Shown piece by piece: positions 9,086 to 49,120 of a DNA stretch of 64,000 nucleotides. Location: the NCBI GenBank assembly GCA_028280455.1, contig JANQLT010000157.1, positions 28,215 to 92,214 on the forward strand, given 5' to 3'. The first letter of the stretch is position 1. Each line of letters starts with the position of its first letter. The notes beneath the pieces were generated by a model. It was not told the DNA's origin. It searched no databases and worked only from the letters and a program-made list of their open reading frames with translations. The translations under genes and the position numbers were made by a program. Source of the stretch: Kiloniellales bacterium. Lineage in GTDB: Bacteria > Pseudomonadota > Alphaproteobacteria > Kiloniellales > JAKSDN01.

Positions 9086-9670
9086 TTGAAGGATCAGGCG
9101 AGCTTGCCGCTCGGCGTGGTGGTCGAGCGGCGCGAGCTGGAGAGCCGTTGGATCCGCTACGGCTGGCGGCCGGTCGCGGTGATCCCCGGCGCCGGGCCGC
9201 TCGATCCGGAGGGCGACTGGACCCTGCTGGACAGCGGCGCGGGCTGGACCCAGTTCCACGCCGGCACCCTGTCCCTGGAGCTCTTCCCGAAGGAGACGGA
9301 GGGCTACCGCCTGAACCTCTCACAGCAGCCGCCGCGGGTCTTCGTCGTGCTCCGCACCCTCGACGACGACGACCTGCCGCACGACGTGCTGCCCTTCCGG
9401 GTCACCGCCTGTCCCTACGAGGCGCAGGACTACCTCGACAGCGGCGACGACATCGTCGAGGCTGTGGCCATGCCCGATGCGGTGATCGCCTTCGTGCAGG
9501 CCTACATCGACCGGCATCACGTCGACGAGCCCTTCGAGAAGCGCAAGCGCAAGCGCTGGGCCGAGCAGAGCGCCGGGATCGGCCTGCGCTCCTCAAGCGG
9601 CCGGGGGAGCGGCCCGGGGAGCGGACGGGGCGGCAACCGGGGCCCCGGCCGGGCGAACGGCCATGGCTGA
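9086..9670 (+). CDS. DUF3305 family protein (FDH-associated)
   Basis: TTG start preceded by GGGAGG. The sequence (LPLGVVVERRELESRW..GWRPVAV) matches my recollection of DUF3305 proteins encoded upstream of alphaproteobacterial FDH operons. Confidence 0.6.
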   Translation: MKDQASLPLGVVVERRELESRWIRYGWRPVAVIPGAGPLDPEGDWTLLDSGAGWTQFHAGTLSLELFPKETEGYRLNLSQQPPRVFVVLRTLDDDDLPHDVLPFRVTACPYEAQDYLDSGDDIVEAVAMPDAVIAFVQAYIDRHHVDEPFEKRKRKRWAEQSAGIGLRSSSGRGSGPGSGRGGNRGPGRANGHG

Positions 9671-10310: not shown

Positions 10311-10383
10311 TCGCCGTGCCCTATCAGAGACCCCTCGGTTCCGTTGCTGTACCGGCCGGGCAAAGACCCTAGGTCAGGCTCGG

Positions 10384-10412
10384 TTGACACCCCACGGGAA
10401 AAGCTCTGTAAT
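10384..10412 (+). promoter_or_regulatory. Sigma70-like promoter candidate for the FDH structural genes
   Basis: TTGACA (10384-89), a 17-nt spacer, then TGTAAT (10407-12), in an unusually AT-rich stretch. Confidence 0.35.
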
Positions 10413-10532
10413 GGATACAACGTCAAAAAACCCTTTGATTATGAGGGGATAAACACCGGAAAGAGCAAACGAATGGCGCTTCTTGCAGGCGGCGTTCGCT
10501 CTCTTCGGACCAACGGGAGGATTGCGGTGTCG

Positions 10533-11132
10533 ATGGCGGCAACGCCCATCGAAATCAGCGAAGAAGACCGACTGAGAGCCAACTGGTATGGCCTGCTGGC
10601 GAAGCTCCTGGGAGCGGCGCCGGGGTCCGAGACGCTTGCCCAGGTGGCGGCGCTGCCGGGCGACGACAGCGAGCTCGGCAAGCTGCTCGGCTCTCTCGCC
10701 GCTGCCGCCCGCGGCAGCTCCGCCGAAGCCCTGCGCGACGAGTACTTCAGCCTGTTCATCGGCGTCGGCCGCGGCGAGCTGGTGCCTTACGGCTCCTACT
10801 ACCTGACCGGCTTCCTGCACGAGAAGCCCCTGGCCCGTCTGCGCGCCGACATGACCAAGCTGGGCGCCGAGCGGGCCGAAGGCGTGGTCGAGACCGAAGA
10901 CCACATCGCCTCGCTCTGCGACACCATGGTCGGCCTAATAACCGGCCAGTTCGGCGCGCCGGCGCCGCTGGAGACCCAGCGCAGCTTCTTCCGCGATCAC
11001 ATCGGCTCTTGGGCGCCGCGGTTCTTCGAGGACCTGCAGGCCGCCAAGGGCGCGGCGTTCTACATGCCCGTGGGCGCGATCGGCGGCCTCGTCATGGCCA
11101 TCGAAGCCCAGGCGTTCGAGATGGCGGCCTAG
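10533..11132 (+). CDS. TorD/DmsD-family redox enzyme maturation chaperone
   Basis: TorD-like sequence (RANWYGLLAKLL, EYFSLFIG, LVPYGSYYLTGFL, EDHIASLCDTM). I chose the ATG at 10533; a GTG at 10526 is an alternative. Confidence 0.7.
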   Translation: MAATPIEISEEDRLRANWYGLLAKLLGAAPGSETLAQVAALPGDDSELGKLLGSLAAAARGSSAEALRDEYFSLFIGVGRGELVPYGSYYLTGFLHEKPLARLRADMTKLGAERAEGVVETEDHIASLCDTMVGLITGQFGAPAPLETQRSFFRDHIGSWAPRFFEDLQAAKGAAFYMPVGAIGGLVMAIEAQAFEMAA

Positions 11133-11249
11133 CGCCCAAGGGGATCAACAACCCCCCGGGGGCGGGCGGCCCCCTCTAGGCAGACCTCCCGCCCGACAAC
11201 GGCGCGACCCCGAAGCGAAGGGCGAGCGCCACAGGAGAAAGGTGACTCG

Positions 11250-11447
11250 ATGAGCAAGAAGGAACCGACGTCCCTCGGTCGTCGCGACTTCTTCAAGACA
11301 GCGGGTGTCGGCGTTGCCGGCGCTGCGGCTGTCGGGCTTACCGCCGCCAAGGCGGGAGCCGTGGAGTCGAAAGACCGGTCGGCCGACAGCGCCGGCTATC
11401 GCGAGACCGAGCACGTGAAGAAGTACTACGAGCTCTCTCGGTTCTAA
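11250..11447 (+). CDS. Small Tat-signal protein of the 'formate dehydrogenase region TAT target' type
   Basis: 65 aa, with an AGGAGA Shine-Dalgarno and a twin-arginine motif GRRDFFKTAGVGVAGAAA. It lies immediately upstream of the FDH alpha subunit. Confidence 0.65.
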   Translation: MSKKEPTSLGRRDFFKTAGVGVAGAAAVGLTAAKAGAVESKDRSADSAGYRETEHVKKYYELSRF

Positions 11448-11478
11448 TCCGACGAATTGCAACTTCTAGGAGAAGTCG

Positions 11479-35236: not shown

Positions 35237-36078
35237 ACGTCAGCGATTTCGATATGATCACGCGAATCTTGCGTGAGCGCTCAGGTCTGGTCCTGTCGAA
35301 GGACAAGGCATACCTGATCGAGAGCCGTCTCAACCCGGTTGCGCGCAAGTGGCAGTTCAAGAACTTCGACGACCTGGCCAGCGCGCTGCGCCTCGGCAAC
35401 GACGAGAAGCTGCTGCGCGACGTCACCGAGGCCATGACCACGAACGAGTCGTTCTTCTTCCGCGACAGCAAGCCGTTCGACCAGTTCAAGGCCATCGTCC
35501 TGCCGCACCTGATCAACGCCCGGGCGTCGAAACGCTCCTTCCGCATCTGGTCCGCGGCCTGCTCCAGCGGCCAGGAGCCCTACTCGCTGGCCATGATCCT
35601 CAAGGAGGCGGGGGCCAGCCTGTCGGGCTGGAGGATCGAGATCGTCGCCACCGACCTCAGCACGGAGATCCTGCAGAAGGCGCAGGAGGGAGCCTACTCC
35701 CAGTTCGAAGTGCAGCGCGGCCTGCCGATCGAGTACCTGGTGAAGTACTTCAAGCAGGAAGGCGAGCGCTGGATGATCGATCCCTCGATCCGCCAGATGG
35801 TCACCTACAAGACCTTCAACCTGCTCGAGGACCCTATGGCTCTCGGTACCTTCGACGTGGTCTTCCTGCGCAACGTGCTGATCTACTTCGACCAGCCGAC
35901 CAAGTCCCAGGTGCTGGCCGGCATTGCCCGCAACATGCCGGCCGACGGCTTCCTCTACCTGGGCGGCGCCGAGACCGTGCTGGGCATCTCGGATTCCTTC
36001 CAGCTGATTCCCGGCCAACGCGGCATCTACGGCCTGATCCCCTCCGGCGCAGCGGCGGCGAAGTCGGCCGTCGGCTGA
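35233..36078 (+). CDS. cheR: Chemotaxis methyltransferase CheR
   Basis: Start at the ATG at 35233 (ATGA overlap with cheB). CheR motifs (TTNESFFFRD, IWSAACSSGQEPYS, FLRNVLIYFD). Confidence 0.9.
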   Translation: MNVSDFDMITRILRERSGLVLSKDKAYLIESRLNPVARKWQFKNFDDLASALRLGNDEKLLRDVTEAMTTNESFFFRDSKPFDQFKAIVLPHLINARASKRSFRIWSAACSSGQEPYSLAMILKEAGASLSGWRIEIVATDLSTEILQKAQEGAYSQFEVQRGLPIEYLVKYFKQEGERWMIDPSIRQMVTYKTFNLLEDPMALGTFDVVFLRNVLIYFDQPTKSQVLAGIARNMPADGFLYLGGAETVLGISDSFQLIPGQRGIYGLIPSGAAAAKSAVG

Positions 36079-36194
36079 CAAGGCACTTGCGGCCGGCGCG
36101 CCGCGACGGCGACAGCCGCTTCCGCGCCAGCACTCCAGATCGCATGGCGATGAGCCCGGCTCATCACGGCGCGGCACTCGCCGTCGAACCGAGG

Positions 36195-36704
36195 CTACAC
36201 AGCGATGTCGGAGTATCGACCGCGGAAGAAGAGCAGCGCGTTTCTGCCGGTATCCCGTAAGGTGCCGAGGGCTTCCACGAGGCCCAGTATGACCAAATGG
36301 TCGCCGGCGTCGACCTGCCTGTAGGTGCGGCACTCGAGAGTCGCCAGGGCGTCGGCGATCAGCGGCGCATCGATGCTGATGCTGCGAGACTTCGGTACAT
36401 CGCGCCATTTGTCGGCCAGGGGCGCCGCGAACTGCCTCGACAGGTGTTGCTGATCGCTGGCCAGGATGTTCACCGCAAAGCCCCGGGCCCGCTTCCATTT
36501 GTCATAGGCATGGGAGCTCTTGGCGACGCTCCACAAGACGAGGGGCGGGTCGAGGGAGACCGAGTTGAAGGAGCTCACCGTTGCACCGAGGTCTTCGCCA
36601 TGCTCGGTCGTCGCGGTGACGACGACCACGCCTGTCGGAAACATCCCGAGAGCGTGTCGGAACTCGGAGCTTGAGAAGGGTCTCGTTCCCTCTGCCGATG
36701 CCAT
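36195..36704 (-). CDS. Flavin reductase (HpaC-like reductase component of a two-component monooxygenase)
   Basis: 169 aa. FRHALGMFPTGVVVVT and SSFNSVSLDPPLVLW are typical of the flavin reductase family. Confidence 0.85.
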   Translation of the reverse strand: MASAEGTRPFSSSEFRHALGMFPTGVVVVTATTEHGEDLGATVSSFNSVSLDPPLVLWSVAKSSHAYDKWKRARGFAVNILASDQQHLSRQFAAPLADKWRDVPKSRSISIDAPLIADALATLECRTYRQVDAGDHLVILGLVEALGTLRDTGRNALLFFRGRYSDIAV

Positions 36705-36789
36705 CGTGCCGCCCTGTTCTGTCGTCTGCCGCCACTGGCTGGCGAGCCGGTATCACGCCCGCGCGCTTCAATCACTTTGCCTGGGCGGA

Positions 36790-36802
36790 ATTGTAATACA
36801 AG
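36790..36802. promoter_or_regulatory. GntR-type operator copy 1 (ATTGTAATACAAG)
   Basis: ATTGT-N3-ACAAg palindrome 86 nt upstream of the flavin reductase start. It shares its arms with the sites at 43720 and 44742. Confidence 0.45.
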
Positions 36803-36825
36803 AAAGCTTTTTTTCAAAGGTAAAA

Positions 36826-37422
36826 TCAGGACTCGTCGACCCGCACGTCGCCGATGTGGCGCAGCAACGACAATGCCCGATCGGTAGAGGCGACGAGACG
36901 CGGCATGATCTCCCTTACACGATCGAAATCATCTCGAGTCAGGTTGCCGAAGTGCACGTCGTTGACCTGAGACTGCAAGCCGGACAGCTTGTCCAGCCGC
37001 TCCCATCCGTCATCGGTGATCTCGAGATTGACCCGTCGGCGATCCTGGTCGTTCTCGGACTTACTGATCAGTCCGAACTCCGTCAGCTTCTTGCATTCGT
37101 TCGTGACGAAGGAGCCGCTCAGGTGCAAGTGCGATGCGATGTCGGAGACCGTGACCGGGCCTTTCTCGGTGAGATGGGCGATCGAGATGATGATCGTGTA
37201 TTGCGGGCCGGACACGCCGATCAGTCTGGCGTATCCGTCTCTGACGGCGGTCAGTCGTGCGGCAAAGGCGAGGGAGTCGTGAACGAACTTGCGGAAATGA
37301 AAATCGTTGCCGTCGACCAGGAGCTCGTCTCGGCTGACCGTGTTGTTGGCCCTTCTGCGCGGTCGACGCGATGCAGACTTGCCCCTTGTCTTGGTTCTTA
37401 CGCCCGCCATGGGTCCTCTCAT
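36826..37422 (-). CDS. MarR family transcriptional regulator
   Basis: wHTH region (VTVSDIASHLHLSGSFVTNECKKLTEFGLISKSENDQDRRRVNLEITDDG) with a basic N-terminal extension. Confidence 0.8.
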   Translation of the reverse strand: MRGPMAGVRTKTRGKSASRRPRRRANNTVSRDELLVDGNDFHFRKFVHDSLAFAARLTAVRDGYARLIGVSGPQYTIIISIAHLTEKGPVTVSDIASHLHLSGSFVTNECKKLTEFGLISKSENDQDRRRVNLEITDDGWERLDKLSGLQSQVNDVHFGNLTRDDFDRVREIMPRLVASTDRALSLLRHIGDVRVDES

Positions 37423-37596
37423 CGGATAGCTCAGGCAAACGAGCGAAGGCGAGCAGGGAGTGCCAGCCCTTCACACGACGACTCAGCCTACAAACTGACC
37501 GCCGAATATCAACGCCAGATCCGCACGAAGGGGAAGGGTGCGGCGGCCTTTTGCCGCTCGGTCGCTCCGCTTCCCGCTGCGGCCGCGGCCCAGGGG

Positions 37597-39102
37597 CTAG
37601 GAGGCCAGTGACTGCGCCCTGGCCGATTCCGTCGCGCTCGAGCCATGCGGCGACTCGTAGCTGTCGATTATGCCCTTCAGAATCTCGTCCGCGCCGGCCC
37701 AGTCGTAGGTTCGGAAGCTGTTGCCGGCCGTCGTGAACTGTGCGCCGGCGTAGAACATCTCGTATTGAACGTGCCGGCCGGCGAACTCCGAGCCGACGGC
37801 GTCCCACGCAAGCTTGAAGAGCTTCATGCGCTCATAGGCGTCGTCCCCCTCGCGCGCCGAGGCCTGCGTGCTGTTCAGCATCGAGAGCAGCTCGGGGTTT
37901 GCCAAGTCCGCCACCGAGGACGGCAGCATGATCAAGCCGCCGCCGGCCAATTCACGGATCTCATTGATAAACTTCGGGTACAGAGCCTGCGTGTAGACCT
38001 GTGCCGCGTAGAGAAGGTGGCGGTTCGGCACGTAGTATTCGCCGTGGAACCGGCCGGAGGCTTCCATGCCGTAGAGCATGCCCTCGGCGGCGCCGATCTC
38101 GGCAGCCATGCGGCCGAGCTTCTCGCGGACCGGCGGCATGTTGATGGTGCCGATCGTCTCGGTTATCCGCCGGGCGATGGCCAAGAGGAACTTCATCTTG
38201 ACGCAGTAGCGGACCTGCGCCTGGTAGTTCTGGCTCACATGGCCCGGCGTGTCATGGAACTGCGCCCGACAGACGTTGGTGTCTCGGTAGACGAAAATGC
38301 GCTCCCAAGGCACCTTGACGTCGTCGAAGTAGATGATGGCGTCGTTCTCGTCGAAGCGATAGGAAAGCGGGTAGTCCCATTGGCTGAGGGCATGGGCCTC
38401 GTAGCTCTTGCGGGAGATGGTCTTGATCCCCTTGCTGGCCATCGGCAGAGCAAAGGAAATGGCCAGGTCTTCCTCACCCGGCTTCAGGGGTTGCAGGTTT
38501 GCGACGAAAATCTCCTCGGCCATGATCGAGCTGGTACCGAGCATCTTGGCGCCCCGCACGGTGACGCCTTCGGAGTCCTCGTCGACGATGTGCATCGTCA
38601 TATCTTCTTTTTCTTGCTCTCCCCAGGCCTTGGACCTGTCGGCCTGGGGGTTGATGATCACGTAGGTCAGGAAGATGTCGTTGTCGCGGGCGTAGCGGTA
38701 GTAGTCCTCGTAGGCCTTGGCATAGCGCTCTCCGTGCGCCCTGAAGACCTCGAGCCCGGCGATTTGCCCACCGATGGCGCAGGCGAGGTGGTCCGGAGAG
38801 CGCCCCATGAAGCCGCCATGCAGCTCGGCCCAGGCGGTCATCGCCTTGCGCTTCGCAACCAGCTCTTCATAGCTCCTCGGAATCTGCCAGGCGCGGTTGG
38901 CGCGAACGCCGGTGCCCGTGTCGAAGGTCATGAGATCGATGTTCTCGTCTCTCGACTGGAAGTCGTAGAGAGCCGCCGTCGTTCTGCAGCTCTCCCGGAA
39001 GGCTGGATGCTCGGTCACGCGCTTGATGAGCTGGCCGTCAAGAAAGACCTCTCTATCCACGTCCAAAGCCGCCAGATGCGCCTTGCCGTCCTTGATCTTC
39101 AT
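37597..39102 (-). CDS. HpaB-family (4-hydroxyphenylacetate 3-monooxygenase-like) flavin-dependent oxygenase component
   Basis: Start at the ATG at 39102, preceded by AGGAGG. 501 aa with HpaB/4-HBA-CoA dehydratase family resemblance along the whole length. The substrate cannot be inferred. Confidence 0.8.
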   Translation of the reverse strand: MKIKDGKAHLAALDVDREVFLDGQLIKRVTEHPAFRESCRTTAALYDFQSRDENIDLMTFDTGTGVRANRAWQIPRSYEELVAKRKAMTAWAELHGGFMGRSPDHLACAIGGQIAGLEVFRAHGERYAKAYEDYYRYARDNDIFLTYVIINPQADRSKAWGEQEKEDMTMHIVDEDSEGVTVRGAKMLGTSSIMAEEIFVANLQPLKPGEEDLAISFALPMASKGIKTISRKSYEAHALSQWDYPLSYRFDENDAIIYFDDVKVPWERIFVYRDTNVCRAQFHDTPGHVSQNYQAQVRYCVKMKFLLAIARRITETIGTINMPPVREKLGRMAAEIGAAEGMLYGMEASGRFHGEYYVPNRHLLYAAQVYTQALYPKFINEIRELAGGGLIMLPSSVADLANPELLSMLNSTQASAREGDDAYERMKLFKLAWDAVGSEFAGRHVQYEMFYAGAQFTTAGNSFRTYDWAGADEILKGIIDSYESPHGSSATESARAQSLAS

Positions 39103-39145
39103 GGGAGCAGACCTCCTGCGTTCGCTAGAAACTATAGTAAAATAG

Positions 39146-39164
39146 CTTTGCAACGAATGCAAAG
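39146..39164. promoter_or_regulatory. Perfect inverted repeat CTTTGCA-N5-TGCAAAG next to a TATAGT -10-like box
   Basis: Lies in the 70-nt AT-rich gap between the ABC ATPase gene and the oxygenase gene. Candidate MarR-type operator and internal promoter. Confidence 0.35.
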
Positions 39165-39172
39165 AGAATGCA

Positions 39173-39889
<717 letters not shown>

Positions 39890-39890
39890 G

Positions 39891-40652
39891 TCAGTGCTCC
39901 GAGCGCCCGATGTAGGCTTCCCGCACGAGGGGGTCGCGGCGGATCTCGGCCAGAGTCCCTTCGGCGATCTTCCGCCCGAAGTTCAGGACGATGGTGTGAT
40001 CGCACAACTGATCGACGAAGTGCATGTCGTGCTCGATGATCAACAAGGTCAGGCCGGCGTCCGAGAGCTTGAGCAGGACGCGGGAGAGCTCGGCCGCTTC
40101 CTCGGCATTGAGGCCGGCCGCGGGCTCGTCGAGCAGGAGGATGCTCGGTCCCGCCATCAGCGCCCGGGCGATCTCGATCTGCTTGCGTATCCCGTAGGGC
40201 AGGCCGCCGGCTTTCTGGCGGTCGAAGCGCTGCAGATCGATCTCGGCGAGAACCGAGCGGGCCTGCGCGCGGGCCCCGCTGTCACCGAGCCAGCGGATCG
40301 GCGCCAGGTAGGGGCGAATGCCCTTGCAGAGGCTCTGCTCACCGAGGATCACGTTGTCGATGACGTCGAGCTCCGGGACCAGGCGGATGTTCTGGAAGGT
40401 CCGAGCGATGCCTGCCTCGATGCGCTTGCGGGAGGGCAGCTCGTCGATTCGCCGATCCGATGCGGTGACACGGCCCGCATCGACCGGATAGACGCCGGTG
40501 ATCAGGTTGAACACGGTCGTCTTGCCGGCGCCGTTCGGGCCGATGAGGGCAACGCGCTCGCCTTGCGCGACGCTGAAGCTGACGTCGTGAACGACGGACA
40601 AGCCGCCGAAGCTCTTGCAGACACCGGCCAGCTCCAAGGCCGGCGCGCTCAT
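39891..40652 (-). CDS. HAAT ABC transporter ATP-binding protein, LivG-like
   Basis: Start at the ATG at 40652 (MSAPALELAGVCKSFGG). Contains GPNGAGKTT and LLLDEPAAGL. Confidence 0.9.
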   Translation of the reverse strand: MSAPALELAGVCKSFGGLSVVHDVSFSVAQGERVALIGPNGAGKTTVFNLITGVYPVDAGRVTASDRRIDELPSRKRIEAGIARTFQNIRLVPELDVIDNVILGEQSLCKGIRPYLAPIRWLGDSGARAQARSVLAEIDLQRFDRQKAGGLPYGIRKQIEIARALMAGPSILLLDEPAAGLNAEEAAELSRVLLKLSDAGLTLLIIEHDMHFVDQLCDHTIVLNFGRKIAEGTLAEIRRDPLVREAYIGRSEH

Positions 40653-41497
40653 CGGGAACGCCCGACCCATCGCGCGACAAGGCTGCCCGGGCCTGAAGGC
40701 CAAGGCGCCACGATGCCTTCGGGGCGGAAGGCGATGAACGCGATGATCAGCGCGGAGAAGATGACGAATCGCCATTCGCCGCTATCGCGAAGCAGCTCCG
40801 GGAGAAAGGTGTAGATCAAGGCCCCCACGATCGGCCCCCAAACCGACCGCGTGCCCCCGACGACCACGTAGAGGATCGTCGTGATGGAGAGAAACACGGT
40901 GAAGTGCTGCGCCTCGATGAAACTGAAGTAGTGCGCATAGAGGCTGCCGCCGGCCGCGGCCAGGCCCGCGCTGACGACGAAGACGATCAACTGGACGAGC
41001 CGGATGTTGACCCCGAAGAGGTCCGAGACGGCTTCGTCGCGCCTGACCGACGCCAGGACGATGTGCGCCCTCGTCGCGCCGGAGTAGACCATCAGGAGCG
41101 TCACGACCGCCGCGACCAGCGCGGGAAAGAGGATGCCTGAATAGACGGCGACGGGATAGCCGGCCGCGCCGCCGACGAGCTCGATGTTCAGGAACAGCGA
41201 TCGGACGATCTCGTTCAGGGCGAAGGTCGCGAAGGCCAGATAGATGCCGGTTGTCCGCAACACCGGATAGGCGATCAGCGCGGCGGCGACCGCGGCCACG
41301 GCGATGGCCGAGAACAGTCCGAGAATCAGGGGAAAGCCGAGCTCGTTGGTGACGATCGCCGAGGTGTAGGCGCCGATCGCCATGAAACCGGCGATGCCGA
41401 GGTTGATCTGTCCGATGGACAGGGGCAGGTAGGCGGCGTAGCCGAGGACGGCATTGATGCACAGCACGACCAGGATGCCTTCGAGATATCCGGTCAT
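40649..41497 (-). CDS. HAAT ABC transporter permease, LivM-like
   Basis: 282-aa polytopic membrane protein with a 4-nt overlap with the LivG-like gene. Confidence 0.85.
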   Translation of the reverse strand: MTGYLEGILVVLCINAVLGYAAYLPLSIGQINLGIAGFMAIGAYTSAIVTNELGFPLILGLFSAIAVAAVAAALIAYPVLRTTGIYLAFATFALNEIVRSLFLNIELVGGAAGYPVAVYSGILFPALVAAVVTLLMVYSGATRAHIVLASVRRDEAVSDLFGVNIRLVQLIVFVVSAGLAAAGGSLYAHYFSFIEAQHFTVFLSITTILYVVVGGTRSVWGPIVGALIYTFLPELLRDSGEWRFVIFSALIIAFIAFRPEGIVAPWPSGPGSLVARWVGRSR

Positions 41498-41506
41498 GGC
41501 TGCGCG

Positions 41507-42382
41507 TCAAATCCGCTGCGTGCTTTGCAGGGCACCGCCGAGGATCCCGCTCGGTCGGACGACCAGCAGCAAGAGGAGCAGGGCGTAGATCACGATATCG
41601 ACCGTGTCCGCACCGAACAGGCCGATTGTGGTGACTTCCAGGATTCCGATCAGCATGCCGCCGACCACGGCACCCCAGATGCTCCCGACACCGCCGATGA
41701 TCATGGCGGCGATCGCCTTCAGGCCGATCTCCTGTCCCATGAGGGCCGAGACCTGGAGATAGTTGAGAGAGAACAGCAGCCCGCCTAGGGCCGTGAACAG
41801 CCCGACCGCCACGAACATCATCTGGACATGCCGCCTGACATTGATGCCCAGGATGGTCGCAGTCTCGGTGCTCTCCGATATCGCCCTGAGGTTTCGGCCG
41901 ACCGGCGTGTGCTTGAGGAGGTAGGAGAGCCCGAAGACCAGCAGGATCGAGATGGCGAAGCCGCAGAGCTGGCCCAGCCCCACAACGATGTCGCCGAAAC
42001 GGATGTTGAAATCGGGCAAGAGCGCCGGGAAGGCCTGCTGGTCGGAGCCCAGGATATGGATCACCAGGTGCTCGTAGAGAATCAGGAAAGCCAAGGAGCC
42101 GATCAGCGAGATCACCGGGTCCCGGCCGCTCAATCGCTTGTAGAGAACCTGCTCGACGGCCATGGACGCGACGATCCCGACGAGCAAGCCGGCGACCAAG
42201 GCGAGGGGGGCCACCACGCCCACGTTCAGCAGCGCCCAGGCCGTCATCGCCCCCAGCATGAAGAGGGCCGGGATGCTGAAGTTCACGAAGTTGATGATGC
42301 CGATGATCATCGTGAAGGCGATCCCGACGAAGACATAGACCGAGCCCAGCATCAGGCCGTTCACGATCTGTTGGACGTGCAT
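41507..42382 (-). CDS. HAAT ABC transporter permease, LivH-like
   Basis: 291-aa polytopic membrane protein (MHVQQIVNGLMLGSVY...), a typical LivH N-terminus. Confidence 0.85.
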   Translation of the reverse strand: MHVQQIVNGLMLGSVYVFVGIAFTMIIGIINFVNFSIPALFMLGAMTAWALLNVGVVAPLALVAGLLVGIVASMAVEQVLYKRLSGRDPVISLIGSLAFLILYEHLVIHILGSDQQAFPALLPDFNIRFGDIVVGLGQLCGFAISILLVFGLSYLLKHTPVGRNLRAISESTETATILGINVRRHVQMMFVAVGLFTALGGLLFSLNYLQVSALMGQEIGLKAIAAMIIGGVGSIWGAVVGGMLIGILEVTTIGLFGADTVDIVIYALLLLLLVVRPSGILGGALQSTQRI

Positions 42383-42487
42383 CGTTCGACCACCGTCTTG
42401 GAAGCGGGAAGGCCAGGCCTGCCAGGGCCGACAAAAGAAGGCCCAGGCGGAGCGTTCCGTTCCGCCCGGGCAGCTTTGCAGGCTAAC

Positions 42488-43660
42488 TCAGGGATTGTAG
42501 ACGCCGAGCAGCTCCCACTTGCGTCCGACGATCTCCATGACGTAGATCGGCTTCAGGGCGTCGCCGTCGGCATTGAAGGTGACCTCGCCGGCCAAGGTGG
42601 GGAAGTCCTTCAGCTTGGCAAGCTCCGCCTGGATCGCGACGCGCTCCGCGGCGACCTCGGATTGCTTGCCGGTGACATTCGCGCGGCGCATGACCTCGGC
42701 ATAGATCATGGCGATCTGGTAGGCGTTGACGTCGTACATGTTGGGCTCGGTCCGCGCGATCCCGGCGGCCTTGGCCCGCTCGGCGAAGGCCTCCGAGAAG
42801 CTCTTGGTGCTCTCGTCGTAGCCGCCGAAGAAGGTCGCGCCGATCGTCATCCGCTGCCCGGCACCGTCCATGCGCTTCGGTAGATCGGGGTCGGCCGCCG
42901 GCGTGCCCGCGATCAGCCGGACGTCGACCTCCTGCCGCTGCAGCTCCTTGGCGAGCTTCAATGCCGCTTCCGGGGGCGAGCCGAGACCCACGATGTCGAC
43001 ATTCTCGGCCTTGATCTGCGACACCTGCGTGGAGACGTCGAAGGCCTTGTACTGGAAGGTCACGGTCTTCTTCTGCTCGATGCCGTACTGCTCGAACAGC
43101 GGCGGCAGAACCTTGGTGCCGATGGCCTTCGAGACGACGTCATCGGTCGCGTGGGCGATGGCCGCCGTCTTCGCGGGCAGGCCCTTCTCCTTCAGGGCTT
43201 TCATCACCGAGCCGATGATGGCGCCCTCGTTGATGCTGTTCCTGAAACCGTAGGCAAAGGGCTCGGAGAGCTTCGGTGCCGCGGAGGCGATAGCGATCTG
43301 CGGGATCTTGAGCCTCTCGCCGGCCGGAAAGGCGACGCGGCATTCGCTCGAGCTGAACGGCCCGATGACGCCGAGCGCGAAGTCGTCCTTGGCGAAGCGC
43401 GAGACGGCGATGCTCGCCTGTTTCGGGTCGCCGCCCGTGTCGAACTTGATGAGCCTGATCTTCTTGCCGTTGACGCCGCCCGACGCGTTGATCTCCTCGA
43501 CAGCCATGTCGACGGCGATCTCGTTGGTGAGCGTGAGACTGACGAAGGGGCCCGTCTTGGCTATGGAGAAGCCGAGCGTCAGGTCTTCCGCGCTCGCGGG
43601 CGACGTCGACGCCATTGCCGCAAGGACCGTCAGTGCGATGCCGGACACCAGGTGTTTCAT
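42488..43660 (-). CDS. HAAT ABC transporter periplasmic binding protein, LivK-like
   Basis: Start at the ATG at 43660, preceded by GGGAGG. Signal peptide MKHLVSGIALTVLAAMASTSPASA and a type I PBP (Leu/Ile/Val-binding family) sequence. Confidence 0.85.
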   Translation of the reverse strand: MKHLVSGIALTVLAAMASTSPASAEDLTLGFSIAKTGPFVSLTLTNEIAVDMAVEEINASGGVNGKKIRLIKFDTGGDPKQASIAVSRFAKDDFALGVIGPFSSSECRVAFPAGERLKIPQIAIASAAPKLSEPFAYGFRNSINEGAIIGSVMKALKEKGLPAKTAAIAHATDDVVSKAIGTKVLPPLFEQYGIEQKKTVTFQYKAFDVSTQVSQIKAENVDIVGLGSPPEAALKLAKELQRQEVDVRLIAGTPAADPDLPKRMDGAGQRMTIGATFFGGYDESTKSFSEAFAERAKAAGIARTEPNMYDVNAYQIAMIYAEVMRRANVTGKQSEVAAERVAIQAELAKLKDFPTLAGEVTFNADGDALKPIYVMEIVGRKWELLGVYNP

Positions 43661-43719
43661 TCCCGCCTCCCATTGTTGATCGCCGGCCACGCCGCTTGGC
43701 TTCGTGACCAATTTCTTAG

Positions 43720-43732
43720 ATTGTATGATAAT
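43720..43732. promoter_or_regulatory. GntR-type operator copy 2 (ATTGTATGATAAT)
   Basis: Lies 60 nt upstream of the binding-protein start in a strongly AT-rich stretch. One mismatch to the perfect palindrome at 44742. Confidence 0.45.
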
Positions 43733-43849
43733 ATAATAAATCAGACAACGTTTTCCACAAAGCTTTTTTGGCGCAAGCAGACGACTGACTCCATCCCCGC
43801 CTATGCAGTCGAAGCTCGACAGAGGGCCGAGCCGCCTGTTTCAGCCTGC

Positions 43850-44512
43850 CTAGAGGAACTCGTCGAACTTGCTTCGTGCCGATTCGGCCGCCATCTCGAC
43901 GTGGTGGCGGCAGGCCTTGGCCGCCGCGACCGGGTCTCGCCTGGCGATCGCCTCGGCGATCGCGCGCATCTCGACGAGTGAATGCGGACTGCGGTCCGGC
44001 GACGACATGGAGGTCGATCTAAGGATGCTGATCCGAGCCCGCAGGTTGCCCAGCATCTCGGCCACGACATCGTCCCGCGAAGCGCCCAGCAGGACCATGT
44101 AGAAGGAATCGGCATGGCGGACGAGGTTCTTGAGGTCCTTTTTCGCGACGGCCTTTCCAAAGCGATCGACCGCTTCCTGAAGCGCTTCGATCTCCGCCTC
44201 GGAGGCCCGTTCCGCCGCGTGACCGCCGGCAAAAGCCTCGAGTTCCGCCCGAATCGCGTAGATTTGCTCGGCCTGCGCCCGGGTCGGCGTGGCGACGACG
44301 ATGCCGCGGTGCGGCTGCGATTCGATGATTCCCTCGCCCTCGAGGATCCGCATCGCCTCCCGAACGGAGGTTCGGCTGGCGCCGGTCAGCTCGCAGAGCT
44401 CCTTGTCGACGAGTCGCTGACCGAACTCGAAGTGGCCGGATACGATGGCCTCCCTGATCTGATCGACCGCCTGCCGAACCACCGTGTTGCGGGTATCCTT
44501 GAGCCTCGTCAT
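43850..44512 (-). CDS. GntR family (FadR/FCD subfamily) transcriptional regulator
   Basis: Start at the ATG at 44512. wHTH (LVDKELCELTGASRTSVREAMRILEGEGIIES) plus an alpha-helical FCD-like C-terminus. Confidence 0.85.
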   Translation of the reverse strand: MTRLKDTRNTVVRQAVDQIREAIVSGHFEFGQRLVDKELCELTGASRTSVREAMRILEGEGIIESQPHRGIVVATPTRAQAEQIYAIRAELEAFAGGHAAERASEAEIEALQEAVDRFGKAVAKKDLKNLVRHADSFYMVLLGASRDDVVAEMLGNLRARISILRSTSMSSPDRSPHSLVEMRAIAEAIARRDPVAAAKACRHHVEMAAESARSKFDEFL

Positions 44513-44741
44513 CGCATCGTGATCCTCTCGGCGCGCGCCATGGCTATCGCACCGCTTGCCGGTTAGAGAGGCGCGATCGCCCGGGTATTGTGCCAGATTC
44601 GGCCAAGCGACTTGTCGACAGCAGACCATGGAAGGGTGCGAAGAGTCTGCGGTCGAGCGTCATGCCGGCCCTTCGGGCAGTGCCTGGAAAGAAGCTTGTT
44701 GCCAGGCTCATGTCGATGGCATAGAAACTACCGCTGTTCAA

Positions 44742-44754
44742 ATTGTATGACAAT
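44742..44754. promoter_or_regulatory. GntR-type operator copy 3 (ATTGTATGACAAT, perfect arms)
   Basis: ATTGT-ATG-ACAAT, 84 nt upstream of the amidohydrolase start, in the region divergent from the GntR gene. Confidence 0.5.
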
Positions 44755-44837
44755 CATTGATCTGGGGTCATACCGGTTGGCTTTGCGGAGAAGTGCGACG
44801 TTTCGCGTTTCGGCCATTCGAAAGGAACCGTGCCGTC

Positions 44838-46034
44838 ATGAAGACTGCCATCGTCAACCTTGGGACGATCGTCACGGGCGACTGGCGCGCGCCGACGATC
44901 GAGGGCGATACGATCATCATGGAGCAGGGCAAGATCCAATCCGTGGGCACGGCCTCGGCCGATGCCGTTTCCTCCTGCGACGTCGTGATCGACGCGGATG
45001 GCGCAACCGCTGTCCCGGGCTTCATCGATTCACAGATACACAACACCTTCGGTGACTATACGCCGAGGCAGAAGACCGTCGGCTTCCTGGAGAGCTACTT
45101 GCACGGCGGGACTACGACCGCCATCAGTGCCTCGGAGGTCCATGTCACCGGGCGCCCCAAGGACCCGGAGGGCGTAAAGGCCCTCGCGGTCGCGGCGCAG
45201 AGGTGCTTCCAGACCTATCGCCCCGGCGGGATGCGTGTCTGGGCCGGCTCGATCATCTTGGAGCCCGGGCTTGTCGAAGAGGACTTCAAGGAGATCGCCG
45301 ACAAGGGAGTCTGGCTTGCGAAGGCGGGCTTCGGCGCCGTCGGCACCCCCTATGACTACGCGCCCATGGTCGGCTGGGCCAAGAAGCACGGGATGGTGAC
45401 CACGGTGCACACGGGCGGCGCCTCGATCCCGGGCTCGTCCGGCATTTGGGCGGATCATCTCCTGAGGATGCAGCCCGACGTCTCCTTCCACGTCAACGGC
45501 GGTCCGGTCGCCATACCGGACGAGGACTTCGCCACGCTGCTCCATGAGAGCGAGATCGCCCTGCAGGTCTGTACCGCGGGCAATCTACGGACCCTGCTGA
45601 TGCTGGCCGACATGGTGAGAGAGGCCGATCAGTTCGACCGGCTCCTGATCGCCACCGACACGCCGACCGGCTCGGGGATCATGCCGCTCGGCATGATGTA
45701 CACGATCACCCACCTCGCCAGCCTGACGGACATGCCGGTCGAGCATGCCATCGCGGCGGCGACCGGCAACAACGCCCGTGTCTACAATCTCAACGCCGGC
45801 TTCATCGCGGAGGGAAAGGACGCGGACGTCCTGGTTCTGGACGCCTGCGTCGGCGGCACGAAGACGGAAGCGCTGGACGGCCTGACCAACGGCGACATCG
45901 TCGCGGTTTGCGCCGTGGTCACCGACGGCATTCCGAGATTCGTCGGCCGCAGCCGAAACACGCCGGCCGGCAATCGCAAGGTTCGCGTCGCCGAGAGCCG
46001 CATCATGCGGGATTTCAAGACTCCATCGAGCTAG
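44838..46034 (+). CDS. Amidohydrolase superfamily protein, enamidase-like
   Basis: Start at the ATG at 44838 (MKTAIVNLGTIVTGDW). The N-terminal composite-domain pattern (VIDADGATAVPGFIDSQIH) and overall length resemble cyclic-amidase/enamidase relatives. Confidence 0.75.
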   Translation: MKTAIVNLGTIVTGDWRAPTIEGDTIIMEQGKIQSVGTASADAVSSCDVVIDADGATAVPGFIDSQIHNTFGDYTPRQKTVGFLESYLHGGTTTAISASEVHVTGRPKDPEGVKALAVAAQRCFQTYRPGGMRVWAGSIILEPGLVEEDFKEIADKGVWLAKAGFGAVGTPYDYAPMVGWAKKHGMVTTVHTGGASIPGSSGIWADHLLRMQPDVSFHVNGGPVAIPDEDFATLLHESEIALQVCTAGNLRTLLMLADMVREADQFDRLLIATDTPTGSGIMPLGMMYTITHLASLTDMPVEHAIAAATGNNARVYNLNAGFIAEGKDADVLVLDACVGGTKTEALDGLTNGDIVAVCAVVTDGIPRFVGRSRNTPAGNRKVRVAESRIMRDFKTPSS

Positions 46035-46084
46035 CGCGAAGCGACGCCGCTGGAGCCAACGCACGCCGACAGCAAGGAGCGACG

Positions 46085-46684
46085 ATGCCGAAAGCCGTAG
46101 AGGGTTACCGGATCCGGAAATGGTACGGATTCTCCGAAGACGCTCTGGCGAACGAGAGCGGGAACGCGGCCGATGGCGAGCCGGTCCGGAAGGTCGCCGT
46201 CGCGGCCGTCGTTCACAATCCCTATGCCGGCGCCTTCAGCGAGGATCTATCGCTCCTTGTCGATCCGTCGCCCAAGCTCGGCGAGGAGTTCGGCCGCCGC
46301 CTCTTGAATTTGGCCGAAGGCGCCGGCATCGAGAGCTACGGCAAAGCCTGCCTGGTCGGCGTCAATGGAGAATACGAGCATGGCAACGCCTGCCTGACGA
46401 CCGCCTTCGCGAATCCGGTGAGGGAGGCCATCGGTGGCGCGGCGGCTTGGATCCCCTCGACCGGCAAGCGGGGCGGGCCGGGCGCCACGATCGACGTTCC
46501 CTTGGCGCACAAGGACGCGCTCTATGTGCGATCCCACTACGACACCTTCACCTTGTCTTTCGCGGACGCGCCCGGCCCCGACGAGATCCTGGTGATCTTC
46601 GCGGCCGCGACGCGGGGCCGGCTCCACGCCCGTCTCGGCGGGCTCAAGGCCGAGGACGTTCAGGGGAAAGACGGGCTGAGCTAG
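46085..46684 (+). CDS. Amino-acid-synthesis family protein (AA_synth, formerly DUF1185)
   Basis: Start at the ATG at 46085, preceded by AAGGAG. Family-typical blocks: VAVAAVVHNPYAG, YGKACLVGVNGEYEHG, GGPGATIDVPLAHKDA, APGPDEILVIFAAATRGRLHARLGG. Confidence 0.8.
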   Translation: MPKAVEGYRIRKWYGFSEDALANESGNAADGEPVRKVAVAAVVHNPYAGAFSEDLSLLVDPSPKLGEEFGRRLLNLAEGAGIESYGKACLVGVNGEYEHGNACLTTAFANPVREAIGGAAAWIPSTGKRGGPGATIDVPLAHKDALYVRSHYDTFTLSFADAPGPDEILVIFAAATRGRLHARLGGLKAEDVQGKDGLS

Positions 46685-46736
46685 CGATTCGGACTGAGTT
46701 TCTGGTCAGGTCGGAATCTCGGCGCGCAGAAAGGCC

Positions 46737-46760
46737 AAGGGCGCTCGAATGAGCGCCCTT
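46737..46760. terminator. Hairpin between convergent genes (DUF1185 gene / ctrA)
   Basis: AAGGGCGCTC-GAAT-GAGCGCCCTT. The flanking T/A runs are short on both strands. Confidence 0.45.
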
Positions 46761-46801
46761 TGACGTCGGAGGATCGGGGATCGGCGCTGGGGCCGTCTCG
46801 C

Positions 46802-47521
46802 TCAGCCGTTGGCGACCTTCTTCGGGGCCGGGTCGTCGACGGTCTCGACCGGGTCGCGCAGCACGTAGCCGCGGCCCCAGACCGTCTCGATGTAGTTGTC
46901 GCCGCCGGTCGCCGCCGCGAGCTTCTTGCGCAGCTTGCAGACGAAGACGTCGATGATCTTGAGCTCCGGCTCGTCCATGCCGCCGTAGAGATGGTTCAGG
47001 AACATCTCCTTGGTCAGCGTCGTGCCCTTGCGCAGGGAGAGCAGCTCGAGGATGCCGTATTCCTTGCCGGTCAGGTGCAGCGGCTGGCTCTCCACCTCGA
47101 CCGTACGCGTATCGAGGTTAACCTTGAGCTTGCCGGTCTCGATGATCGAGTCCGAGTGGCCCTTGGCGCGGCGGACGATCGCCTGGATCCGGGCGACCAG
47201 CTCACGCCGGTCGAACGGCTTGGTGAGATAGTCGTCGGCGCCGAAGCCGAGGCCCTTGATCTTGTCGTCCAGGCCCGAGAGGCCGGAGAGGATCAGGATC
47301 GGCGTCTTGACCCTTGCGGCCCGCAGGCGGCGCAGGACCTCGTAGCCGTCGATGTCCGGCAGCATGAGATCGAGGACGATGATGTCGTAGTCGTAGAGCT
47401 TGCCGATCTCGAGGCCGTCTTCGCCCATGTCGGTCGTGTCGCAGATGTAACCTTCCGACCGGAGCATCATCTCGATGCTCTGGGACGTGGCCGAATCATC
47501 CTCGACGAGTAGTACACGCAT
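46802..47521 (-). CDS. ctrA: Cell-cycle response regulator CtrA
   Basis: OmpR-type regulator with the highly conserved CtrA sequence ([67 protein letters not shown]). Confidence 0.9.
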
Positions 47522-47584
47522 TGAGAAACCCCCAGGTCCTTCTTCGATTCTTCCTCAACGGTTAACCATTTTGGTCCGTGATTG

Positions 47585-47599
47585 TTAATAATCCCTTAG
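47585..47599. promoter_or_regulatory. CtrA-box-like sequence TTAA-N7-TTAG in the ctrA / fliI divergent region
   Basis: TTAATAATCCCTTAG has one mismatch to TTAA-N7-TTAA and lies about 64 nt upstream of the ctrA start. Confidence 0.3.
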
Positions 47600-47734
47600 C
47601 GCCGCCACAAAACTGTCCTAGGCCCTTGCCGTTTTACCGAAGCTTAAGCCTGTCACCAGATACTGGCCGAGCTTCGACGCGCCCAGATAATGACAATGAA
47701 TCGCATACGATTCAACTGCTTATAAGGCGTTCTT

Positions 47735-49120
47735 GTGACCGATTCCCTGGAAGGACTGCTGCACGACATCCGCCGCCTGCCGCGCTTGCGCTTCTATGGC
47801 AGGGTCAGCGGCATCCTCGGCCTGGTGGTCGAGGTCGAAGGCCTGGAGCCGGCCCTGGCCGTCGGCAGCCGCTGCCATGTCGTCGCCCGCGACGGCCGCC
47901 GGGTCGCCTGCGAGGTCATCGGTTTCCGAGCCGGACGGGCCATTCTGCTGCCTTTCGGCAAGCTGGAGGGCATCGGCCTGGGCTGCCGGGCGGAGCTGGC
48001 CGAGACGGAATTCGTGGTGCGGCCCAGCCGGGCCTGGCTCGGCCGGGTGGTCAACGCCCTGGGGCAGCCGCTCGACGGCAAGGGCCCGCTGCCGGGCGGC
48101 ACCGAGGGCTACGCGCTCAACGCCGCGCCGCCGCCGGCCCACGACCGGGGCCGGGTTTCCGGGCGCATCGACCTCGGCGTGCGGGCCATCAACTGCTTCC
48201 TGACCACCTGTCGTGGCCAGCGCATGGGGATTTTCTCGGGCTCGGGCGTCGGCAAGTCGACCCTGCTGTCGATGCTGGCGCGTTACACCGAGGCCGACGT
48301 CAACGTCATCGGCCTGATCGGCGAGCGCGGCCGCGAGGTGCAGGAGTGGCTCGAGGACGAGCTGGGCGAGGAGGGCCTGGCCCGCTCGGTCGTGGTCGTG
48401 GCCACCTCGGACGAAGCACCGCTGATGCGCCGTCAGGCTGCCTATATGATGATGGCCCTTGCGGAGTTCTTCCGCGACCAGGGCGAGGATGTTCTCTGCC
48501 TGATGGATTCCGTGACCCGTTTCGCCATGGCGCTGCGCGAGATCGGCCTGGCCGCCGGCGAGCCGCCGGCCAGCAAGGGCTACACGCCCTCGGTCTTCGC
48601 CGAGCTGCCGCGCCTGCTGGAGCGGGCCGGGCCGGGCCGCTGCACGGGCTCGATCACCGGCCTCTTCACAGTCCTGGTCGAGGGCGACGACCATAACGAG
48701 CCGATCTCCGACGCCGTACGTGGCATACTGGACGGTCATATCGTGCTGGAGCGCTCGATCGCCGAGCGCAACCGCTTCCCGGCGATCAATGTCCTGCGCA
48801 GCGTGTCGCGGACCATGCCGGGCTGCAACGGACCGGAGGAGACCAGCCTGATCGCCCAAGCCCGGGGTCATATGGCCACTTACGAGAACATGGCCGAGCT
48901 GATCCGCATCGGCGCCTACAAGCGGGGCGCCGACCCGGCGGTCGACGCCGCGATCACCTTCTATCCGCGTCTCGAGGCCTTCCTCGGCCAGCGCCGCGAC
49001 GAGCGCAGCGGCCTGGAAGAGGGCTTCGCCGGCTTAGGCGCAATCCTCGGCGCGCCGCCGCAGACCGCCGCCGAGCCGCCGGAGGCGGCGGCCCTGGCTG
49101 ACAGCGTCGAGGCCGCCTGA
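47735..49120 (+). CDS. fliI: Flagellum-specific ATPase FliI
   Basis: GTG start. Walker A GSGVGKST and F1/T3SS-ATPase blocks ([38 protein letters not shown]). Confidence 0.9.

Follow-up and report, generated by a model that had tools for sequence, protein, structure and literature searches.

The stretch of DNA analysed here (the window, 64 kb at its full length) stems from contig JANQLT010000157.1 of a Kiloniellales bacterium, and its subject is a block of eleven genes which separates cheR from ctrA and which encodes an HpaB-family oxygenase with a flavin reductase, a five-gene importer of the Liv type, an enamidase-like amidohydrolase, a DUF1185 (AA_synth) protein and two regulators of the MarR and GntR families. 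The explanation favoured for this block, held with rather more confidence than doubt, is that of a horizontally acquired catabolic island in an uncultured marine member of the Kiloniellales, by which a nitrogen-containing ring acid would be broken down under the control of a GntR repressor.

Gene content and the cheR-ctrA junction

Open reading frames were called with the G+C content of third codon positions (GC3) as a guide, and the proteins of the window were then scanned with Pfam and NCBIfam models, which gave the following features (lengths in amino acids, aa; E, expect value):

36079..46801: whole inserted block, 10.7 kb and 11 genes, from the cheR stop to the ctrA stop
36195-36704, minus strand: flavin reductase, 169 aa; Pfam Flavin_Reduct (PF01613), E 2.5e-39
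36826-37410, minus strand: MarR-family regulator; Pfam MarR, E 4e-9
37597-39102, minus strand: HpaB-family oxygenase, 501 aa; Pfam HpaB_N, E 1.8e-86, and HpaB, E 4.5e-52
39173-39889, minus strand: LivF; the segment 39173-42382 matches Pfam ABC_tran, BCA_ABC_TP_C and BPD_transp_2
39891-40652, minus strand: LivG
40649-41497, minus strand: LivM
41507-42382, minus strand: LivH
42488-43660, minus strand: binding protein, 390 aa, first gene of the transporter operon; Pfam Peripla_BP_6, E 1.8e-45
43850-44512, minus strand: GntR/FCD (FadR-subfamily) regulator, 220 aa; GntR (PF00392) E 1.5e-15, FCD (PF07729) E 3.2e-25
44838-46034, plus strand: enamidase-like amidohydrolase, 398 aa; Pfam Amidohydro_1
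46085-46684, plus strand: AA_synth/DUF1185 protein (PF06684), 199 aa; E 1.8e-67, model positions 1-175 of 175

Every gene that a first-pass annotation of the same DNA had named was recovered by Pfam, whereas its count of ten has to be corrected to eleven, the number to which its own gene list sums as well. The starts of four block genes match independent gene calls on Logan contigs which carry an identical amidohydrolase, and elsewhere the locus of the source organism was found only on short metagenome contigs. On one flank the cheA-cheW-cheY-cheB-cheR operon ends with cheR at 36078, and on the other ctrA (46802-47521, minus strand; CtrA equivalog 424.6 bits, cut-off 350) is followed by fliI.

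Homologues of its CheR protein assign the host to the Kiloniellales. In the closest contig with context (L017, CheR 82% identical) cheR, ctrA, fliI and fliJ are contiguous, and the same four genes, likewise with no gene between them, were found in Kiloniella sp. EL199 (L020), while the cheR-ctrA junction of a third relative (L019) holds three unrelated genes (5153-12349). The composition of the block is shifted as well, with a mean GC3 of 0.855 for its 11 genes versus 0.923 for 42 flanking genes (Mann-Whitney p = 4e-5), which bears out the earlier impression that third codon positions are less G/C-rich here, and with an overall GC content of 63.8% versus 69.1% in the flanks. Two relatives in which cheR and ctrA adjoin each other, a third with other cargo between them and the deviating composition show that the block was inserted, at a junction which was interrupted more than once. 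The description of an island wedged between che and ctrA hence stands, and the junction appears to be a recurrent insertion site in the Kiloniellales. The further claim that the intergenic DNA is AT-rich held for four block spacers with 44-58% GC (36705-36825, 39103-39172, 43661-43849 and 44513-44837) but not for two others (37411-37596 and 42383-42487) nor for both boundary spacers, all of which have 65-73% GC, most intergenic stretches elsewhere in the window having 60-73%.

The junction spacers of the window span 36079-36194 and 46685-46801. The cargo of the third relative consists of a 243-aa protein of unknown function, a 1124-aa SAM/guanylate-cyclase/AAA_16/TPR protein and an S8 peptidase. 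Downstream of the block, the ctrA-fliI intergenic region (47522-47734) has 48% GC, which is unusually AT-rich for this genome; a full CtrA box (TTAA-N7-TTAA) was found nowhere in the 64-kb window, and an exact look-up of the identical CtrA protein gave no match.

The enzyme module and its transporter

The first-pass annotation had proposed subtyping of the HpaB-family protein and the amidohydrolase by hidden Markov model searches, and for the former these gave scores below both HpaB equivalog cut-offs (TIGR02309, 305.2 versus 480.2; TIGR02310, 279 versus 885.2). Substrate binding by E. coli HpaB involves Arg113, Tyr117 and His155 (PMC10816480), and the matching positions of the block oxygenase read R/H/Y, while loop residues 210-212 differ as well. 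This R/H/Y triad was found in all 120 closest homologues and in all 19 further clade members that were checked, down to 53% identity. Since its scores lie below the equivalog cut-offs and its substrate triad is altered, the oxygenase is by sequence a distinct, uncharacterised subfamily and not a true HpaB, its best solved relatives being 4-hydroxyphenylacetate 3-monooxygenases (E 1e-78). For the flavin reductase the best NCBIfam matches are of the HpaC/HsaB type, all below cut-off, and a reductase gene also adjoins relatives of the oxygenase in five loci (L034, L035, L044, L103 and L104).

Genomic context was surveyed across 80 metagenome loci and several long contigs. Oxygenases of at least about 59% identity are typically accompanied by an enamidase-like protein (55-76% identity), an AA_synth protein (47-60%), a MarR regulator (42-64%) and a flavin reductase (33-49%), often in a single operon, and the five-gene core of MarR, DUF1185, HpaB-like, enamidase-like and flavin reductase genes recurs in about 15 metagenome loci. 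Among 84 other neighbouring proteins that were profiled with Pfam, no further enzyme recurred beside the module, and the partner monooxygenases, the cupin and the DUF2848 protein of related clusters received no specific names from NCBIfam. Throughout, the oxygenase clade is paired with a C-N hydrolase. Within the clade (53-91% identity) two contexts occur, namely enamidase-like plus DUF1185 genes, or cupin, amidase and DUF2848 genes (cf. L103, 8451-12990, and L104, 8436-14221). As the whole clade has the R/H/Y swap and yet occurs in two genomic contexts, the latter suggest one hydroxylation reaction which feeds two alternative downstream routes, and sister oxygenases of 53-58% identity carry the same residues at the seven active-site positions examined.

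The amidohydrolase was identified as a full-length homologue of enamidase (2VUN; E 1.5e-100, 340 bits, 42% identity, residues 2-384 aligned with 3-385). The reaction which defines enamidase yields 2-formylglutarate and ammonia. Enamidase acts on 6-oxo-1,4,5,6-tetrahydronicotinate, whereby a cyclic enamide is hydrolysed and ammonia released (PMC7356986). The orthologue group to which the block protein belongs pairs with three types of hydroxylase, being HpaB-like, an FAD (flavin adenine dinucleotide) monooxygenase or an XDH-type molybdenum enzyme, and the block protein is 60-76% identical to the members from these clusters, as compared to 41% for a Sulfitobacter homologue beside nicotinate-type genes. 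In Mariluticola and Agrobacterium vitis the enamidase-like gene accompanies a single-component FAD monooxygenase and a DUF4286 protein, in Mesorhizobium an XDH-type molybdenum hydroxylase, and succinate-semialdehyde dehydrogenase is also present in two of these three clusters. The Sulfitobacter homologue belongs to a nicotinate-type cluster on plasmid P3 of S. mediterraneus (L102, 7995-17176) with a molybdenum hydroxylase, an annotated 6-hydroxynicotinate reductase, UPF0280, two tandem AA_synth genes, MarR and the enamidase-like gene, which points to an enamidase route with DUF1185 partners in aerobic marine bacteria.

The AA_synth protein matches structure 2QTP (E 1.8e-40), and its gene is adjacent or close to the enamidase-like gene in almost every related locus. 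DUF1185 relatives have been linked to the closing steps of N-heterocycle or lactone pathways, and one of them, TgnF, reportedly stimulates the final dehydrogenase of trigonelline breakdown (PMC7913881). Across the loci a constant logic emerges, in which a ring hydroxylase of any type is followed by an enamidase-type hydrolase and then by DUF1185.

The importer is a five-component HAAT-type ATP-binding cassette (ABC) system with one binding protein, two BPD_transp_2 permeases and two ATPases, one of the latter with BCA_ABC_TP_C. Its binding protein reaches 61.6 bits against the LivJ/K-type model NF011933 (cut-off 477), and solved amino-acid binding proteins are distant relatives only (best E 1e-17), too distant to suggest a ligand. 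Liv-type systems recur beside the oxygenase clade in seven loci (L006, L022, L023, L103, L104, L065 and L072), and the transporters next to related modules include TRAP DctPQM, TAXI-TRAP and TctC. Transporters of the TRAP, TAXI and TctC types carry carboxylates.

Palindromes and regulators

Three copies of a palindrome were found in the block, precisely where the first-pass annotation had placed them:

36790..36802: putative operator copy 1, ATTGTAATACAAG, exact TTGT-N3-ACAA
43720..43732: putative operator copy 2, ATTGTATGATAAT, one mismatch to TTGT-N3-ACAA
44742..44754: putative operator copy 3, ATTGTATGACAAT, exact, a perfect palindrome

Copy 1 lies 85 nucleotides (nt) upstream of the flavin reductase ATG (36704) and 24 nt past the marR stop, copy 2 lies 59 nt upstream of the binding-protein ATG (43660), and copy 3 is located in the spacer that separates gntR from the amidohydrolase gene, 83 nt before the amidohydrolase start (44838); these distances agree with the 60-90 nt before first genes given earlier. 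Exact TTGT-N3-ACAA occurs twice in 64 kb versus 0.09 occurrences expected, a count which none of 100 shuffles reached, and both exact copies as well as the sole intergenic one-mismatch copy fall inside the block. Scans with looser patterns were without significance (e.g., 9 matches versus 5.3 expected).

A sigma-70 consensus scan of 36000-47800 gave six promoter-like matches versus 1.6 expected, and all six lie on the three sites. At every site the half of the palindrome on the minus strand reads TACAAT, which resembles a -10 element, with a -35-like hexamer 16-18 nt before it: for copy 1 TTGAAA (36817-36812) and TACAAT (36795-36790) are spaced by 16 nt on the minus strand (10 of 12 matches), for copy 2 TTGTCT (43748-43743) and TACAAT (43725-43720) by 17 nt, likewise on the minus strand, and for copy 3 ATGACC and TACAAT by 18 nt. 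The first two of these promoter-like sites face the reductase gene and the transporter operon, the third faces gntR, while the opposite half of copy 3 (GACAAT) points to the amidohydrolase operon. Repressor operators classically overlie the -10 element. Because the TACAAT half of copy 3 forms the -10 of the promoter-like site that faces gntR, this arrangement suggests autoregulation of gntR, as far as can be predicted from the sequence.

In a contig with a GntR protein 87% identical to that of the block (L106), the position and core of copy 2 are kept as ATTATAATACAAA with diverged flanks. GntR orthologues of 40-52% identity adjoin AA_synth genes on plasmid pWSM4875 of Mesorhizobium sp. WSM4875, on a Mariluticola halotolerans plasmid, on pAt of A. 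vitis and on a metagenome contig (L014, L015, L016 and L107), and an enamidase-like gene is present in the first three of these four loci as well. In Mariluticola TTGTCATACAA, which has the same core as copy 3, precedes AA_synth by 39 nt, the stretch from gntR to AA_synth in A. vitis contains three boxes of the form TYGTCWGACRA, and the metagenome contig has TGTCATACAA and TTTTATGACAA. In Mesorhizobium boxes are found at three separate promoters, one of them that of a liv-type transporter, a layout as in the block. A Shinella locus has boxes beside AA_synth and downstream of the amidohydrolase gene, and no GntR gene was detected there. In related clusters with MarR and without GntR, no box was found beside the enzyme genes. 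Since the palindrome is enriched, overlaps -10-like hexamers and is accompanied by related boxes beside distant GntR orthologues but not in MarR-only clusters, it is probably an operator of the FadR subfamily of GntR regulators; this is the best-supported reading of the motif and is in line with the GntR-type operator predicted earlier.

A scan of genome contigs with the GntR protein yielded three distant loci only (best 42% identity), and the protein is 48% identical to proteins labelled trigonelline degradation regulator by JGI. Contigs L105 and L106 share an identical GntR gene (87% to that of the block) and diverge completely after about position 790, just downstream, whereby only L106 runs on into the operator-2-like region; the pair represents either an assembly chimera or a strain-level rearrangement. 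The Mesorhizobium plasmid locus (L014, 448-13197) combines the enamidase-DUF1185-GntR trio and the same operator type with an XDH-type hydroxylase, a ThiO-like FAD oxidase, two type II dehydroquinase-like genes, an Asp/Glu-racemase-family gene (arylmalonate decarboxylase/EutA-like) and succinate-semialdehyde dehydrogenase, and is another uncharacterised N-heterocycle cluster.

For marR, the start at ATG 37410 is backed by a Shine-Dalgarno sequence and by conservation, and MarR homologues of 42-64% identity adjoin the enzyme module in about ten related loci. Upstream of marR, a stretch of about 50 nt (37460-37512, minus strand; core on that strand TTTGTAGGCTGAGTCGTCGTGTGAA) is near-invariant in comparison with a relative whose oxygenase is 91% identical (L007/L008), while the surrounding intergenic DNA has diverged in the same relative. 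No GntR box occurs within 37460-37512, and this stretch is probably the marR promoter together with a MarR operator, a candidate suggested by its conservation.

Between livF and the oxygenase gene lies a further conserved spacer:

39103..39172, minus strand: livF-oxygenase spacer, 70 nt, 44% GC, 92% identical to that of a relative (L006/L007)

It contains an inverted repeat (39146-39164, CTTTGCA-TTCGT-TGCAAAG) with perfect 7-bp arms followed by a T-rich stretch, which was flagged as terminator-like, although such sites are not above chance in the region, and which shows weaker symmetry in the close relative. The repeat could be an internal terminator, an attenuator or a regulator site. The TTGCA-N5-TGCAA motif of this spacer was considered as a MarR site and rejected, as it is not conserved elsewhere.

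GntR accompanies AA_synth-enamidase pairs with other hydroxylases, MarR accompanies the enzyme module, and the block has both, hence it resembles a mosaic, with a regulatory layout of the GntR type placed over an enzyme module of the MarR type.

Proposed mechanism, rival explanations and known systems

In the mechanism that we infer, from DNA binding and repression to every enzymatic step and the class of substrate, the Liv-type importer would take up a nitrogen-containing ring compound, probably carboxylate-bearing, which would subsequently be hydroxylated by the HpaB-like oxygenase and the flavin reductase, whereby the product would be, or would tautomerise to, a lactam or enamide. The enamidase homologue would then open or cleave the C-N bond hydrolytically with release of ammonia, the DUF1185 protein would assist the next step on an unstable product, e.g., an enamine or formyl acid, and the carbon would enter central metabolism without a further dedicated enzyme. 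The GntR/FCD repressor would bind the three ATTGT-N3-ACAAT palindromes over the -10 hexamers and so repress the promoters of the reductase gene, of the transporter genes (possibly together with the oxygenase gene) and of gntR itself, the latter divergent from the amidohydrolase-DUF1185 operon, until a substrate-derived effector releases it. MarR would probably add a second layer of control over itself and possibly over the oxygenase gene. An N-containing substrate, as proposed in the first-pass annotation, is a sensible reading, as the amidohydrolase is a close homologue of enamidase and the oxygenase clade is always found with a C-N hydrolase. The most likely substrate class is an N-heterocyclic carboxylate, the carboxylate being assumed because TRAP, TAXI and TctC transporters adjoin related modules.

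Several observations weigh against this explanation. Regarding the insertion, neither tRNA genes nor Rfam matches nor convincing flanking direct repeats were found at the block edges, Pfam found no recombinase among the 11 block genes, and no mobility gene marks the edges. Regarding the chemistry, the HxH metal motif of the amidohydrolase reads QxH (DSQIH; 45015-45059, residues ~60-74). The same QxH is found in five other lineages linked to HpaB-like oxygenases (L009, L022, L029, L031 and L038), while 13 other distinct homologues keep HxH, and it looks like a tolerated or functional variant, possibly with a one-metal site. Moreover KpiC, an amidohydrolase-fold protein of the Arthrobacter 4-hydroxypyridine pathway, was reported to be an oxygen-dependent ring-cleaving dioxygenase (PMC7356986). 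Downstream of the sister oxygenase genes lie those of a cupin, an enzyme with an amidase signature and DUF2848, MarR and a Liv-type transporter being present there as well, and by analogy with this context the hydroxylated product may still need oxygenolytic cleavage. Regarding control, the three sites share the -10-like TACAAT, hence their similarity is possibly in part promoter sequence, and the closest function-labelled relatives of the GntR protein adjoin a luciferase-like oxygenase (L110) and lack such a box. No GntR box precedes marR or the oxygenase gene (hpaB), the latter possibly but not necessarily sharing a transcript with the liv genes, and in most related loci the regulator is MarR and not GntR. 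The idea of one regulon, put forward in the first-pass annotation, is only partly right: boxes cover the reductase, transporter and gntR/amidohydrolase promoters, yet marR has its own conserved upstream block, and in about 15 related loci the partner of the oxygenase, hydrolase and DUF1185 genes is MarR and not GntR. Control is probably two-layered.

The identity of the ring acid may be specified in two ways. A nicotinate-related pyridine carboxylate (hydroxynicotinate, hydroxypicolinate or a trigonelline-like compound), processed by a variant enamidase or an (acylamino)methylene-succinate route, is a possible but on the whole unlikely substrate, for which the natural substrate of enamidase itself speaks (PMC7356986), along with the enamidase-like and DUF1185 genes of the Sulfitobacter nicotinate-type cluster, the same genes beside an XDH-type hydroxylase and succinate-semialdehyde dehydrogenase in Mesorhizobium, and the 48% identity of the GntR protein to labelled trigonelline degradation regulators, one of them encoded next to luciferase-type monooxygenase and hydrolase genes; DUF1185 is also the family of TgnF. 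It has to be set against this that Pfam found no molybdenum hydroxylase, 6-hydroxynicotinate reductase or aldehyde dehydrogenase in the block, that the amidohydrolase is only 41% identical to the Sulfitobacter protein versus 60-76% within its own group, and that the oxygenase of the tgn-like locus (L110) is luciferase-like and not HpaB-like. The second specification, which we regard as rather improbable, is pyrrole-2-carboxylate, a pyridine carboxylate being at least as likely. Here the HpaB-like oxygenase would form, together with its reductase, the pyrrole-2-carboxylate monooxygenase (Enzyme Commission number EC 1.14.13.130), an enzyme purified from Rhodococcus, the 5-hydroxy product would tautomerise to a cyclic enamide lactam, the enamidase homologue would convert this to 2-oxoglutarate and ammonia, and DUF1185 would handle the enamine or imine. 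This monooxygenase is listed among the group D two-component FAD monooxygenases, the class of HpaB (PMC6165268), and in the literature searched this review listing was all that was found, with no genes assigned to the pathway. By our own chemical reasoning, a hydroxylated five-membered ring can be hydrolysed without the reductase which six-membered pyridones need, and a pyridone-type reductase is present in the Sulfitobacter cluster and absent from the block. The module moreover has no downstream dehydrogenase or other constant enzyme, as if its product were already a central metabolite, and the carboxylate-type transporters nearby fit an acid substrate. On the other hand the proposal is a speculative one drawn from chemistry, the cupin of the sister clade has no obvious role in it, and the amidohydrolase homologue on a Rhodococcus plasmid adjoins Rieske and ferredoxin genes and not an HpaB-like gene. 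If true, the module would be the missing genetic basis of pyrrole-2-carboxylate catabolism, including the sequence-orphan EC 1.14.13.130, and the first defined role of DUF1185 would be that of an enamide hydrolase partner which processes an enamine or formyl-acid product.

Two further alternatives question the interpretation at a different level. Taken literally, the annotations would describe a true HpaBC hydroxylase of 4-hydroxyphenylacetate or of tyrosine-type phenols, next to an importer of branched-chain amino acids and a protein for amino acid synthesis, which share no common pathway. Pfam and source names, and the solved relatives of the oxygenase (E 1e-78), agree with this, yet the equivalog scores and the clade-wide swap of the substrate triad, the lack of homoprotocatechuate cleavage genes in the block, the 61.6 bits of the binding protein versus the LivJ/K cut-off of 477, and the joint occurrence of oxygenase, hydrolase and DUF1185 genes in about 15 loci make it very hard to sustain. 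Nor does it seem probable, though the case is somewhat better, that the palindrome is no GntR operator at all and represents a shared promoter element (TACAAT with AT-rich context), a MarR site or chance. TACAAT takes the -10 position in all three copies, looser pattern scans were not significant and a MarR is encoded in the block; however, in two of the copies the two-fold symmetry reaches past the hexamer, enrichment of the exact palindrome is about 20-fold, and related palindromes occur with GntR orthologues as far as Agrobacterium and Mariluticola and are missing from MarR-only clusters.

In the explanation favoured here, an acquired island for an N-heterocyclic carboxylate, the block is part of a compact module which is found in metagenomes and on plasmids of cultured bacteria without a characterised member, and which is hence a target for a new N-heterocycle route that might supply the genes for an orphan EC number. 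Cultured carriers of the enamidase-DUF1185-GntR layout are Mesorhizobium sp. WSM4875, Mariluticola halotolerans and A. vitis T60/94, and those of the oxygenase clade include Thioclava sp. GXIMD2076 and Caballeronia sp. NK8. That DUF1185 ("amino acid synthesis") consistently occurs with enamidase-type hydrolases after three unrelated kinds of hydroxylase is the clearest clue to the role of this family. Automatic annotation as 4-hydroxyphenylacetate hydroxylase, as branched-chain amino acid transporter and as amino acid synthesis protein probably misleads. The putative regulator-operator pair is directly testable, and its boxes are conserved from Kiloniellales to rhizobia.

The first-pass annotation had failed to assign the gene combination to any named pathway, and likewise no described pathway with this gene set was found in the literature searched. 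Three candidates were considered and rejected: a true HpaBC system (equivalog scores, altered triad), a canonical nicotinate/enamidase cluster (no nicotinate dehydrogenase or 6-hydroxynicotinate reductase in the block) and a trigonelline (tgn) cluster (no luciferase-like oxygenase, alpha/beta hydrolase or succinate-semialdehyde dehydrogenase in the block, all of which are seen in the tgn-like L110). The block resembles the trigonelline and nicotinate systems in parts, yet fails the defining features of each.

With HpaBC of E. coli and Thermus thermophilus the block shares the two-component design, the HpaB_N and HpaB domains and a separate PF01613 reductase, whereas its oxygenase differs in equivalog score, in the R/H/Y triad and in the 210-212 loop residues, and is associated with C-N hydrolases instead of meta-cleavage genes. 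The likeness to the enamidase of Eubacterium barkeri nicotinate fermentation (2VUN) lies in full-length homology, with most conserved blocks of the fold kept, and in a predicted hydrolytic C-N cleavage with release of ammonia; the differences are the two nicotinate-pathway enzymes absent from the block, QxH in place of HxH, and the flavin monooxygenase and DUF1185 as partners. In the GEVGLG segment of enamidase, Glu is replaced by Lys in all proteobacterial homologues examined. KpiC, which was compared by description only, is likewise an Amidohydro_1 protein whose nearest characterised relative is enamidase and which acts directly after a flavin monooxygenase (PMC7356986), but with 475 aa and 28% identity to enamidase it stands apart from the block protein, which is much closer to enamidase.

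The tgn cluster of Acinetobacter baylyi ADP1 resembles the block in having a GntR-family regulator, a two-component flavin oxygenase (the predicted substrate of the block enzyme being, as there, an N-heterocyclic carboxylate), a nitrogen-releasing hydrolase and a DUF1185 helper protein, and differs by a luciferase-like oxygenase and an alpha/beta-fold hydrolase (as in L110), and by dehydrogenases, including succinate-semialdehyde dehydrogenase, which the block lacks. The operators of FadR-type repressors have TTGGT/ACCAA arms, compared to TTGT/ACAA in the block. At this locus a second regulator, MarR, is the difference from the FadR, PdhR and LldR-type repressors, with which the block GntR shares an N-terminal GntR winged helix and a C-terminal FCD domain, an inverted-repeat operator of the t.GT-N-AC.a type over core promoter elements, and a divergent, probably autoregulated layout.

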